This document shows, in pieces, positions 4,508 through 12,756 of a DNA stretch of 39,787 bases (positions within the stretch are counted from its first letter, which is position 1; each line of letters starts with the position of its first letter). The DNA is taken from IMG/VR virus record IMGVR_UViG_3300033067_000173, positions 1-39,787 of that record; one strand, 5' to 3'. This DNA comes from a virus. Taxonomy: Duplodnaviria; Caudoviricetes. The notes beneath the pieces were generated by a model. That model ran no database searches. It was not told the DNA's origin and was given only the letters and a program-made list of their open reading frames with translations. A program made the translations under genes and the position numbers.

Positions 4508-4668
4508 TATTTTTCCTTTCTGAAGTCGAGTGGCTGCGCCAGCACCCACTTGGGGCCGAGCTTGCGCACTGCCCGAGCCCATGCCCGGCAGTTGTGGCGG
4601 ACGATGTGGCGGGGGACGTCGGGGCGGTCGAACATCAACCGGGCGCGGGTCAGCATGCGGGTGTTCAT
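4507..4668 (-). CDS. Small basic hypothetical protein
   Basis: ATG 4668 coupled. Confidence 0.75.
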   Translation of the reverse strand: MNTRMLTRARLMFDRPDVPRHIVRHNCRAWARAVRKLGPKWVLAQPLDFRKEK

Positions 4669-4910
4669 GGCGCCCTCGCTTTCAGCATTTCGTCTGCCAT
4701 CTCGTAGGCGATTTCCGCAATCATGTCCCAGTCTTCGTTGTCCCAATACCAGCTGCTGCCAAGCTCCTTGTCGTAGTTTTCCTTGAGCCGGGCCATCGCC
4801 ATTGGCATTGCCAGCCCTGCGAAGTGGTCGCGCAGGGTCATCCCGGGCTCGCCGCCGTGCGTTGGGTAACCGTGTGGGAACGCTAGTTCGCCTGTGTTGA
4901 TCGCGCTCAT
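4665..4910 (-). CDS. Conserved phage protein (GMTLRDHFA...AYEMADEMLKAR family)
   Basis: Recognisable motif; ATG 4910 coupled. Confidence 0.82.
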   Translation of the reverse strand: MSAINTGELAFPHGYPTHGGEPGMTLRDHFAGLAMPMAMARLKENYDKELGSSWYWDNEDWDMIAEIAYEMADEMLKARAP

Positions 4911-5892: not shown

Positions 5893-5911
5893 GGTGATCT
5901 CCTTCAGGCGT

Positions 5912-5933
5912 AAAAAAACCCGCCGTGGCGGGT
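5912..5933 (-). terminator. Rho-independent terminator
   Basis: ACCCGCC-AC-GGCGGGT followed by a T tract on the minus strand. Confidence 0.85.
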
Positions 5934-6173
5934 GATTGGCGCCGGTTACGGTTCCGGCTCGCTATGGGTCGCGACGATCAGATGTCTCGCCGGGCAGACC
6001 CAACCTGCCCAGCCGTGGCGTTGACGCAGCCACGCAGCCCCTACGCTTCTCGCTACGGGTAATGCGGCCCCATTCTTTATCGCTGGAGGGGCGTCCAGCT
6101 GTGGTCTGCTCGGAGGGTAATGTCCGGGCTGGCGCCACTGCAATGCGCCCTGTCACGGCGCATCACGGTAGGG
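5912..6173 (-). ncRNA. Candidate structured ncRNA (multi-hairpin) ending in a terminator
   Basis: Gene-free gap in a gapless operon containing at least 5 hairpins plus a long-range TGGCGCC/GGCGCCA pairing. Confidence 0.5.
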
Positions 6174-7261: not shown

Positions 7262-7711
7262 CTACATGTTGCAGATGACCTTCCAGCGGACGCCGGGCAG
7301 ATCTGCGGGGGTGAATACGATGGCGGGGTCGCCACTGGCGAACGTCATCCTGACGGCGGCAGCGCCCTCTTCGAGCATCTTGCGCAGGGTGACCAGCGCA
7401 GCGATGTCGTGGCGGCTGCGGGCCTCGACGACACGCGGGGTCTTCGAGATCCCGGTCGCATTCAGCAGGTAGTCGCGGGCCGCCTTGAACTGACGCTCGC
7501 GGTCAGCGGCTTCCTTGTGGGCCAGAGCCGATTCGCAGGCGCCGTCGTAGCTGTCGGAGACGAGGTGGTCGACCCCGTCCGGGCTCATGTAGCCCCAGCG
7601 CAGCGCATCGCCCTGCTGCTTGGCGAAGATGACGTAGGGGTACAAGCCCCCGGCGCTGTGACGCTGGATGCTGGAGCCGTCGGGAAGGTGGCCTTGGTAT
7701 ACATGGGACAT
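7262..7711 (-). CDS. Hypothetical protein
   Basis: Start refined to ATG 7711 (AAGGAG RBS). Confidence 0.8.
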   Translation of the reverse strand: MSHVYQGHLPDGSSIQRHSAGGLYPYVIFAKQQGDALRWGYMSPDGVDHLVSDSYDGACESALAHKEAADRERQFKAARDYLLNATGISKTPRVVEARSRHDIAALVTLRKMLEEGAAAVRMTFASGDPAIVFTPADLPGVRWKVICNM

Positions 7712-7731: not shown

Positions 7732-7765
7732 ACACAAAGCAAAACGCCCTCAACCGAGGGCGCTT
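7732..7765 (-). terminator. Terminator-like hairpin
   Basis: GCGCCCTC-GGTT-GAGGGCGT followed by TTTGCTTTG. Confidence 0.6.
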
Positions 7766-7784
7766 CACTTGGGGCTCCGGGACT

Positions 7785-8849: not shown

Positions 8850-9140
8850 TTAGAGGTCTGACAGGTTGAGGCGGGTGACTTCGCCGACGGACTCGATGGC
8901 CGCCAGCAGGTTTGCCGGCAGAACCGCACGGGCCTTGGCCGGGTCGAGGCGCACCACAAGCGTGGTGGACACGGTGGCCCGGTAGCTGCGGCCCTCGATG
9001 ACGCCGTCGCCGGCCGACTTGATCTCGGCCTTGATGGCGTCGGCCTGCTTGTTCAGTGCGCTGATCTGTGCATTGAGTGCGCCGAGGCGGTCAACGGAAT
9101 TGGCGAGACGGCGGGGGGAGAGTTGGACGACTGCTGACAT
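8850..9140 (-). CDS. First gene of the leftward operon, helical hypothetical protein
   Basis: Start refined to ATG 9140 with AGGAG RBS. Confidence 0.82.
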   Translation of the reverse strand: MSAVVQLSPRRLANSVDRLGALNAQISALNKQADAIKAEIKSAGDGVIEGRSYRATVSTTLVVRLDPAKARAVLPANLLAAIESVGEVTRLNLSDL

Positions 9141-9482
9141 GGTTGCTCCTGTGGTGATGGCAGAGCGTCCTACTTGGGCTCCTAACCCATGCTCACTCAG
9201 GCCCTTTCGGGTTGCTTGGTAAGGCGCTCTGGCATCCCTTGCGGGGTGCTTTGCAGGGCGTGATGCTTCGACGTCACACAACGCCTAGCCCTGCTGCAGA
9301 TCTACCCGGTGTGTCCACCGTCCCTGCTTGGATGTCCGTCTCTTCCAGCCGACGTAGCTGCTTGTCATGCCGCCTATCCCAGTTGTGATGTGGGGGCCGG
9401 GGGCCGTAGCTCGTTTGTTTTCCGCTGCTACCTGCGGTTCGGCTTGTTGGCTGCCTGTCGACCCGGCGATGCGGTATCGATG
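9141..9482 (-). ncRNA. Long structured 5' leader / candidate ncRNA
   Basis: Lies between the PL-like promoter and the first RBS; GAAA- and GCAA-capped stems, multibranch stem, G-U pairs favour the minus strand. Confidence 0.55.
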
Positions 9483-9488
9483 GGATGA

Positions 9489-9517
9489 ACTGTATACCCA
9501 TTCGGTTGACCAGTCAA
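9489..9517 (-). promoter_or_regulatory. Major leftward sigma70 promoter (PL-like)
   Basis: TTGACT-N17-TACAGT. Confidence 0.8.
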
Positions 9518-9663
9518 GTGCCGGGTCAAGTGCTGCGTTTCTCGAGTGAGAACGTAATCCGACCAAATCGCTGGGTTATTCGGCCGATCCTCGCGATTGG
9601 CGTGCGCATCACATCTGCGCATGATGTGATCACATGTTTCGTGTGCGCCATGACGGGCGAAGC

Positions 9664-9692
9664 TTCACAAGCGTGTCGTGCGCGCGTATGCT
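9664..9692 (+). promoter_or_regulatory. sigma70 promoter, probably giving a leaderless mRNA
   Basis: TTCACA-N17-TATGCT; ATG begins 7 nt after the -10 box. Confidence 0.6.
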
Positions 9693-9698
9693 CGCGGG

Positions 9699-10028
9699 AT
9701 GCGTTACCTGCCCGCTATCGCGCTATTCGTGTGCCTGTCTGCGCGTGCGGGTGTGCGTGAGCTATGGGGGCTCGAGGATGTGGGCGACCCCATCGATGGA
9801 GTGACCCAGCTCCAGTGGCTGGTCTGGCTCATCACCGTGGTGTGTGGCGTGCTCGGCGTGGGCCTGCTCGCGGAATCTCTGTCTAGTCGCGCCTCGCTCC
9901 CGTGGGCGGTGGGCATGCTGGGTATGGTCGCGGTGGCGTGGCTCTGGCCGGTCTGGGCCGCGATGATCGTGATGGTCGGGGTGCCGGCGATGATCGTGGT
10001 GGCGGCGGTCTGGCCCAAGGGTCGCTGA
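9699..10028 (+). CDS. Membrane protein with signal-peptide-like N-terminus and 2-3 TM segments
   Basis: MRYLPAIALFVCLSARA then long hydrophobic runs; own promoter and terminator. Confidence 0.7.
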   Translation: MRYLPAIALFVCLSARAGVRELWGLEDVGDPIDGVTQLQWLVWLITVVCGVLGVGLLAESLSSRASLPWAVGMLGMVAVAWLWPVWAAMIVMVGVPAMIVVAAVWPKGR

Positions 10029-10838: not shown

Positions 10839-11137
10839 GCGGGGCCACCGACAAGACCAAGGCGATGGTTCTGGAGCTGATGCAGGACGGCCAGACCCGC
10901 AACGTCCGTCAGGCCAGCATGGATCTGTTCGGGAAGTACAGCACCGCCGTGAACTACTGCCTGTCCAAGCTGTGCGAGGAGGGCGTCCTGATGAGGGATG
11001 CTACGAAAGAGACCGGGGCGCTGAACTTCCCGCGCCACTTCAAGCTTGCTGACCAGAAGGCCCCAGATGGGACCGTGGACAACAACCCGTTCCTGTGGCG
11101 GACCTACAGGCAATATCAACCGGAGAGCAGACCATGA
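10835..11137 (+). CDS. Winged-helix-like protein
   Basis: GTG 10835 coupled, GGAGG RBS; VLELM...AVNYCLSKLCEEGVL. Confidence 0.7.
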   Translation: MSGATDKTKAMVLELMQDGQTRNVRQASMDLFGKYSTAVNYCLSKLCEEGVLMRDATKETGALNFPRHFKLADQKAPDGTVDNNPFLWRTYRQYQPESRP

Positions 11138-11769
11138 AAGTAATACTCAAGGAGCGCGAGTTCGAGGCGCACCAGTGGTTCAAGAATGGGGATCACCCGC
11201 AGGACTACAGCGAGGTCCACGCCGACTTCGAGGGCGGAATCATGCGCGAGTTCACGGCGGCTGAGTGCAAAGCAAAGGGCTGGGAGGGCGACGTGGTGCG
11301 CTACTTCCGCCACCCGGAAATCCCCGGGAACACAATCTGCTCAATCTGTGGCAAGTACATGCATGAACATGGGTTCATCGACCTCGGCCCGGGAGGCTAC
11401 ACCGTGTGCCCGGGAGACTGGATTCTGACCGGAGCGACCAACGGGCTCTATGTGCCATTCTCTCGGACACAGCTCAATGAGCTGTTCGATGTGGTCGGCG
11501 GTGATGCCAAAACGCCTGCGGCCATCAACTTCGGCGATGCCATCGAGGCCTTGAAGGACGGCAAGCGGGCGACCCGGCGGGGGTGGAATGGCAAAGGGTT
11601 GAAGATAGCCCTGCAGAAGGTACGTGTACGCTCCGGCGGTGATATGGATCGGCCGTACATCTACATCGAGTACCCGCCGGGATATAACTACCCCCTCGGC
11701 TCCCGTGTGCCGTGGGCTCCAAGCCAGACCGACATGCTGTCGACCGACTGGGAGATCTTCGATAAATGA
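11134..11769 (+). CDS. Two-domain protein: N-terminal EAxQW/PGDWI domain fused to C-terminal DUF2829 (Tad2-like nucleotide sponge)
   Basis: FGDAIEALKDGKRATRRGWNGKG...PYIYI...VPWAPSQTDMLSTDWEI; ATG 11134 coupled. Confidence 0.85.
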   Translation: MKVILKEREFEAHQWFKNGDHPQDYSEVHADFEGGIMREFTAAECKAKGWEGDVVRYFRHPEIPGNTICSICGKYMHEHGFIDLGPGGYTVCPGDWILTGATNGLYVPFSRTQLNELFDVVGGDAKTPAAINFGDAIEALKDGKRATRRGWNGKGLKIALQKVRVRSGGDMDRPYIYIEYPPGYNYPLGSRVPWAPSQTDMLSTDWEIFDK

Positions 11770-12225: not shown

Positions 12226-12756
12226 ATGAACGAACGCCCCACTATCAAGGAGCGCTACGCACGCTCCGCAGAGACCTCCGACCTGACCTTGAGCTGGAAG
12301 GAGGTCGGATCTGCGGATGTGATGATGGCCGCCGGCATGGCCTCGCAGGGAAGTCCAGACCGGATGCTGGCGCTGGTGATCTGGCGCATGCTCGAGGGAG
12401 ACACCGCCCGCTTCAGCGAGTGCCGGGACGTGCTGGGTGAGTGGCTTCGCCATGAGATCACCCAGCGCAGGATGCAGGATCTTGGCCGGCATGGGGCTCG
12501 AACGGTGGCCGGGCGGACCCTGTTCTGGTTCCTGAATACCAAGTGCTTACCCTGCGAAGGGCGAGGCCACCCGGTGATCGAGAACACCCCGGTGCTGGAC
12601 GACACCCGGAACTGCCAGCACTGCCACGGGACCGGCAACACCCCTTTGGAGAGGGTGCTGCAACCCCAGATGATCCCGGCAGGCCGGATGCTGGCCGACC
12701 ACATCGACAGCCTGACCAGTCGCGTGTTCGGCGAAATGCGAAAAAAACTTAGTTGA
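12226..12756 (+). CDS. Q-like late antiterminator
   Basis: CLPCEGRG...CQHCHGTG Zn motif; last early gene, followed by a promoter and terminator. Confidence 0.75.
   Translation: MNERPTIKERYARSAETSDLTLSWKEVGSADVMMAAGMASQGSPDRMLALVIWRMLEGDTARFSECRDVLGEWLRHEITQRRMQDLGRHGARTVAGRTLFWFLNTKCLPCEGRGHPVIENTPVLDDTRNCQHCHGTGNTPLERVLQPQMIPAGRMLADHIDSLTSRVFGEMRKKLS

Follow-up and report, generated by a model that had tools for sequence, protein, structure and literature searches.

The window analysed here is the whole of a virus record of 39,787 nucleotides (39.8 kb; IMG/VR IMGVR_UViG_3300033067_000173, Caudoviricetes), with a CheckV completeness of about 55%. Terminase, portal, capsid and tail fibre genes are encoded on its plus strand and a replication initiator on its minus strand, where a leftward operon of 26 open reading frames led by ribosome-binding sites (RBS) extends over 9.5 kb from a promoter at 9517-9489 and runs off the contig. 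The promoter is of the sigma70 type (9489..9517, minus strand), with the boxes TTGACT and TACAGT 17 nucleotides apart as the initial annotation had read them, and transcription is predicted to start at 9482/9481. The gap of some 340 nt that had been noted ahead of the first RBS-led gene is indeed a non-coding leader of 342 nt, followed by a gene (8850..9151, minus strand; RBS 9151-9146, start 9140) for a protein of 96 amino acids. A palindrome, TTGAC-TG-GTCAA, covers the -35 box (9506-9530) beside the direct repeat CACTTGAC, and further palindromes such as TGTGATCACA occur upstream of the promoter (9608-9636); judged by their letters these look like operators, and no repressor was identified. 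Within 9664-10028 (plus strand), a promoter-like site at 9664-9692 precedes a hydrophobic open reading frame, which seemingly starts at 9699 without an RBS and possibly encodes a membrane or exclusion protein. The plus strand also encodes a protein with a Tad2-like (Thoeris anti-defence) domain (11095-11769) and, ahead of the terminase, a Q-like zinc-finger protein (12229-12756); its gene stands at the head of the opposite operon, as does a Q-like gene in the phage G002, which is regarded here as a lead only. The host is probably a betaproteobacterium, because a relative of an early protein is named from Rhodoferax mekongensis and a Betaproteobacteria-1 RNA is present in L330, a phage contig in which this Rfam RNA (4576-4705, plus strand, 87.6 bits) precedes the leader by 1.3 kb on the same strand. 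Integrase matches were found in two of the five records searched, the window not being one of them.

Relatives of the leader were sought by sequence, by pattern and through neighbouring genes. Among 90 loci fetched by their proteins, nhmmer retrieved one homologue, L017 (E 1.4e-8), in which the promoter and the first 185 nt of the leader are followed by a different gene. Pattern scans gave real matches in 1 of 9, 2 of 115, 6 of 62, 1 of 37 and 5 of 18 cases, those without the promoter and the core described below being rejected and treated as chance, and neither of the two matches from a scan for the junction at the 3' end of the leader was real. Three members (L321, L324, L331) were found without the promoter pattern. 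After duplicates had been merged, ten distinct cores remained (alignment A1); as these members are related, they represent fewer than ten independent events. A blastn comparison of three leaders with cultured phages produced no real match, and the T7 A1-A3 region does not match the core model. The first gene fetched ten distant loci, none with the core RNA, genes 2 and 5 fetched none, and only L017 has the core RNA among 80 loci fetched through the terminase, many of which have short flanks. Since the member G002, a complete 82-kb phage, has no match to the terminase of the window, the core RNA is not confined to a single type of virion. The promoter tail TAnAGTTCAnCCCATCG is widely shared, occurring at 115 viral loci (L100-L214) with many different structured leaders behind it (e.g. 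L111, L135, L206); being common to so many phages, it is by itself no evidence of membership.

The leaders of the members are about 260-440 nt long and non-coding, and their first genes vary, a homologue of the window's first gene lying further down the operon of L340. The commonest early gene, which the window has and which turned up in 8 of the 13 stretches searched (several of them overlapping or short), encodes the conserved protein phrog_18383 (window 7265-7711, minus strand), which has 49 relatives and an invariant YxGHxxDGSSxQxHSAG motif and often accompanies the core RNA. No copy was found in 13 kb of L340 or in 400 sampled genomes of one class, the gene sits after the first terminator in G002, and a PDB profile search gave only a weak match, to a chain named H10; as a partner of the core RNA the protein is a weak candidate.

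The core consists of the first ~77 nt of the transcript (9482-9406, minus strand), in which two hairpins with conserved loops are followed by an H-type pseudoknot. This most conserved part of the leader had been missed in the initial annotation, and nested folding programs cannot draw a pseudoknot. Hairpin A (9458..9480) begins at about +2 and has a 5'-terminal stem, a small internal loop or bulge and a CAUCGN loop closed by G-C; its outer stem is paired in all ten members, one pair changing from G-C to A-U in two of them and the inner pair flipping between C-G and G-C. Hairpin B (9441..9455) combines a 3-bp stem with an A-rich loop of 8-9 nt beginning AGC, and its middle pair is C-G in eight members, G-C in the window and A-U in L287. 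For eight pairs across the two hairpins, all 80 of 80 cells are paired, four of them being compensatory. The invariance of the hairpin columns is partly built in, because many of them, the letters of loop A included, were in the search patterns; the loop A motif is kept in L017, L200 and two X3 contigs, all found without it in the query, and the loop B motif in members from scans whose pattern left it out. A long-range helix enclosing the core was dropped as a candidate, given that hairpin B covaries.

The pseudoknot (9406..9437, minus strand; S1 9437-9434/9425-9422, S2 9431-9427/9410-9406) lies at +43 to +46, 2-4 bases after hairpin B, in all ten members, and no search pattern contained it. 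Its register came from an exhaustive search, so that the weight rests on the controls: its score was reached by 0-3 of 200 shuffles per member, and 4 of 100 distinct promoters of the same type pass the pseudoknot test, two of these being members, which leaves 2 of 98 unrelated ones. S2 has ten different sequences in the ten members, and exchanging partners between members gives full pairing in 2 of 90 combinations for S2 and 13 of 90 for S1. Loop 3 is A-rich (66% A across the members). That the pseudoknot keeps its shape and not its sequence speaks against base-specific contacts at this site. In 10/10 members, including the three that were found without the promoter pattern, the core follows the -10 box of a sigma70 promoter at a distance of 5-6 nt. 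The window has a single copy, as does each of five whole records, the count in these records having been made with model R1, in which the S1 pairs stood one column off; the corrected model R2 gave the same picture on the sets that were rerun.

With G-U pairs included, the pseudoknot scores higher on the transcribed strand in nine of the ten members, which speaks against a DNA-level element such as an operator or origin, although hairpin A is built of ATCG repeats that overlap the start site. A small open reading frame fares no better: no frame is open across the members, and since, in addition, the spacing of the core shifts by one base between them, the leader is not a conserved coding region. 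We regard both of these explanations, together with a self-cleaving ribozyme (see below), as most improbable. The proposal of the initial annotation that a conserved structured RNA heads the early transcript is borne out by covariation in the relatives, among which the structure is conserved. That it belongs to no recognised family also agrees with Rfam, where neither the window at gathering thresholds nor 9141-9482 at E up to 10 has a match; the homologue leaders likewise match no riboswitch, ribozyme or sRNA, and EAR, which is in Rfam, does not match the leader. No description of the core RNA was found in the literature covered, which includes part of the supplements of PMC10690425, a source of 10,006 viral candidate RNAs; an earlier listing is possible. 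We conclude that the core is a real RNA family, apparently not catalogued before, whose predicted fold is strongly supported and whose function can be inferred.

A structured 5' end that serves mRNA stability would occupy exactly the same position as the core, a point that counts against the antitermination reading preferred below. Hairpin A at +2 and the pseudoknot could form a 5' shield that stabilises the early transcript by blocking pyrophosphate removal and 5'-end-dependent decay, while leaving elongation unaffected. Terminal hairpins of this kind are known stabilisers, only 1-2 unpaired 5' nucleotides precede hairpin A in all members, and a pseudoknot conserved in shape and not in sequence would suit such a role. 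However, loop sequences and spacings are conserved beyond the needs of a shield, loops A and B holding even in members found without them, and 96 of 100 promoters of the same type have no such pseudoknot behind them. If RNase III cuts before the first gene, moreover, a shield would not protect the mRNA, and we consider this explanation unlikely.

The same promoter class offers a second kind of comparison. A motif that we take to be boxA (10 or more of 12 positions) occurs behind 8 of 100 same-type promoters, in five cases at +45 to +54; these are L120, L151, L107, L156 and L187 (promoter at 1201-1237 of the locus), where hairpins are followed by a near-perfect copy. L120 and L151 have the order hairpin-hairpin-boxA, with boxA at +45/46, the slot in which core members have hairpin-hairpin-pseudoknot. 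The hairpin-boxA signals of lambda nut and rrn thus have a counterpart in the same slot behind the same type of promoter, and the 5' strand of S1 reads NGCUC in five of the ten members. The members themselves have no boxA (the best sites reach 7-9 of 12 in seven loci, and the window lacks even the GCUC half), and the core was therefore rejected as a nut/rrn boxA signal.

Beyond the core, the leader (190-370 nt) is a mosaic of swappable modules, with blocks common to different subsets of phages. In the window, all the stems that had been listed can be located (9231-9219/9173-9161, 9211-9202, 9189-9175, 9249-9232, 9294-9253, 9320-9307 and 9360-9346), and two of the loops described as GNRA, GAAA and GCAA, are of that type, whereas GACA is not. 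In the thermodynamic sense the label 'highly structured' fails, since the whole leader has z = -0.97 and 18 of 100 shuffles fold equally well; the 3' junction alone stands out in stability (9236-9155, z -3.4, 0 of 200 shuffles; z -2.8 on the opposite strand too). The variable middle (9253..9405, minus strand; hairpins 9395-9377, 9360-9346, 9320-9307 and 9294-9253) has no excess stability (z +0.97) and is alignable partly to L017 and weakly to L331 (E 0.002). In X3 record 1 the changes, read by hand, preserve the stem and loop at 9320-9307, and in another X3 contig 9364-9433 is replaced by 147 other letters. In L224, L321 and L324, about +82 to +125 of the leader forms a second pseudoknot module that covaries and that the window lacks. 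Four leaders (L250, L265, L269, L329) share a module, CCGAACGAGAUG...CCGA(U/A)GACC, that has hammerhead-like words but no canonical core and no Rfam match.

The last part of the leader begins with a hairpin bearing a GCAA tetraloop (9232..9249, minus strand), identical in L269, which competes with the basal extension of a long helix of 12 pairs and one mismatch (9161..9231, minus strand) capped by a three-way junction (9211-9175). This is the multiway junction before the RBS on which the initial annotation had laid most stress. It is present and covaries with L269, both sides being changed in 5 of 20 pairs and pairing being kept in 39 of 40 cells (in two sequences only, and as reached by 19 of 500 shuffles), but it is common to just one of the ten other leaders compared and is therefore an optional module. 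In the close relative X3 record 1 the junction is replaced by a short loop while the enclosing helix stays, and because of this the 3' end is more likely an RNase III-type processing site, the helix probably being its functional part and the junction cargo. Most members close the leader with a long helix, interrupted by a small internal loop, whose end coincides with the RBS or falls near it. The early RNase III sites of T7 (R0.3, R1.1) are similar to this 3' module, and to this module only, in having a long helix with an internal loop shortly before the first RBS, but have no counterpart to the apical three-way junction; the stretch before T7 gene 0.3, presumably an RNase III site, folds much like the members' terminal helix. 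The helix of at least about one turn that an RNase III site calls for is present in the 3' module, and the minimal E. coli RNase III substrate is given as 34 nt (PMC1540722).

The junction also bears on the ribozyme explanation, since, with the CUGA that it contains, it is conserved between the window and L269; it nevertheless lacks, on reading by hand, the hammerhead GAAA and cleavage triplet, and no ribozyme family was matched at E up to 10. A riboswitch-like sensor that controls the first gene, also suggested originally, would find some support in two alternative helices that overlap at 9236-9232 and in the compact H-type pseudoknot with its A-rich loop 3, a form that recalls small aptamers. 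The lack of any Rfam match, the free variation of the pseudoknot bases, the distance of about 260-440 nt to the RBS of unrelated first genes and the lack of a predicted terminator within any leader all speak against it, and we judge such a sensor very improbable.

If the leader were cut at the terminal helix, it could instead persist as a stable RNA of 260-440 nt that acts in trans, with swappable decoy modules for host RNA-binding or defence proteins. A strong promoter, a protected 5' end and a long 3' helix would fit such an RNA, as would the exchange of modules among phages in the manner of early genes and the second covarying pseudoknot in L224, L321 and L324. Phage RNA decoys exist, pseudo-ToxI being one, and the 32-36-nt H-type pseudoknot with A-rich strands of ToxI and pseudo-ToxI, found in phage, resembles that of the core (PMC5086642). 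The core differs from ToxI in being a single copy and not a tandem repeat, in having no conserved pseudoknot sequence and in being fused to two hairpins; as no tandem repeat of 34-36 nt lies in 9141-9482 among the 20 largest repeat families listed, it was rejected as a type III antitoxin or mimic. A Csr/Rsm sponge was likewise rejected, GGA motifs not being enriched in the leaders (28-232 of 300 shuffles reach the count). Besides the want of tandem repeats and of GGA enrichment, the invariant position of the core points to a role in cis, and no target was identified, so that a decoy acting in trans appears distinctly unlikely.

Both sites at which internal terminators had been placed, near 7750 and near 5920, carry suitable structures (7770-7737 and 5933-5918), but the first may not be a terminator: the 15-pair helix with a U-rich tail at 7737..7770 (minus strand), before an RBS at ~7720, resembles the RNase III-like helices and could be either a terminator or a second RNase III-type site. 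The other (5910..5933, minus strand) looks like an intrinsic terminator, a hairpin with U8 that is separated by 26 nt from the next start codon; the replication initiator gene (3719-2862) lies downstream of it. Intrinsic terminators are predicted in seven of nine operons, and 12 of the 16 sit 17-45 nt before an RBS-led start; no consensus promoter lies beside any of the 16. In L287 and L224 none is predicted in the 3 kb examined. A single small gene precedes the first terminator in L269 and in G002, the two genes being unrelated. No N-like gene was recognised: the N36 profile (PF11438) matches in none of five records, N proteins being divergent and four of the five records incomplete, and the genes before the first terminator have at most 4 Arg per 12 residues and no Arg-rich motif.

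The second structured intergenic region, at 5912..6173 (minus strand; z -1.7, 7 of 200 shuffles), comprises a long hairpin after a stop codon, a possible pseudoknot from 6099 and the U8 terminator, and could be a separate transcript from a promoter-like site at 6416-6387. The initial annotation had paired it with the leader in a two-RNA system. A search of 341 loci gave no homologue of this region, the core does not recur in it, and the best score of its pseudoknot was reached by 13 of 200 shuffles; with neither a homologue nor a significant pseudoknot, the two-RNA idea is unsupported.

Among known RNA antiterminators, HK022 put is the closest in setting. Like putL, which spans ~70 nt just downstream of PL, the core is a cis element of about that length at the start of an early transcript that crosses terminators, with no dedicated protein recognised (PMC9378689). 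Two long stems and a triplex make up put, for which no pseudoknot is reported (PMC9378689), and each genome has two copies, whereas the core has two short hairpins and a pseudoknot and occurs once. The core sits, as put does, directly downstream of the early promoter and upstream of the terminators. Read-through by put is factor-independent and works via the beta-prime zinc-binding domain. Once putL had been placed in HK022 through 16 of the 16 positions that PMC9378689 gives, the likeness of nine of ten leaders to putL proved no better than chance (reached by 40-197 of 200 shuffles), whereas putL retrieves putR with a score of 72; the tenth leader, that of L224, stands at 3 of 200, which we take as chance among ten tests. 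Nor does the core model match the HK022 region, and with no similarity to putL or putR and no two-stem V-shaped fold the core was rejected as a put RNA. Both conAn2 of pLS20 and EAR resemble the leader in being long structured RNAs (260-600 nt) near the start of a multi-terminator operon, but they belong to Gram-positive plasmids or chromosomes, and conAn2 needs the adjacent ConAn1 protein (PMC8191782); no adjacent gene is shared among the members, and conAn2 was rejected as well.

Of the interpretations first offered for the leader, antitermination stays the best guess, a riboswitch having become unlikely and the 3' junction only an optional module. Our leading, though still tentative, interpretation from the sequence comparisons is that the core is a new antitermination RNA that acts in cis, its fold being predicted to form in the nascent transcript. 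By itself, or together with host Nus factors or a phage protein that went unrecognised, it would bind the elongation complex and so make host RNA polymerase read through the terminators inside the long early operon; RNase III would cut the long helix at the RBS, separating the leader from the first mRNA. What we infer in this reading is where transcription starts, that the RNA folds in vivo, that it binds the elongation complex and that read-through results. It is based on the covarying fold, the fixed spacing to the promoter, the single copy, the changing downstream genes and the predicted terminators before promoterless genes, and it is favoured by these terminators, the lack of an N-like match, the boxA in the same slot and the lead provided by the Q-like gene, taken together. 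Several points weigh against antitermination. The promoter-like site at 6416-6387 (10 of 12) may start a core-less transcript that still meets the 5920 terminator, and terminators inside phage operons are frequent and might just be leaky. The scans would miss phage-activated promoters or a divergent N, and the window holds only about 55% of the genome.

A bolder form of the antitermination reading, which we think rather unlikely in full, is a protein-free class of processive antiterminator, in which a pseudoknot RNA in the boxA slot would bind RNA polymerase directly and head a leader of exchangeable modules that RNase III releases as a stable multi-purpose RNA. RNA-based processive antiterminators are few: only put, EAR and conAn2 are counted in PMC8191782 (2021). 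The 77-nt core, with its ten natural variants and boxA-bearing counterparts, makes a small testable candidate for another class, for which the natural S2 variants supply compensatory mutants. If the bolder form is true, a pseudoknot RNA would have replaced boxA in its slot behind a class of betaproteobacterial phage promoters. The mosaic leader indicates that these phages exchange non-coding RNA modules as they do early genes.
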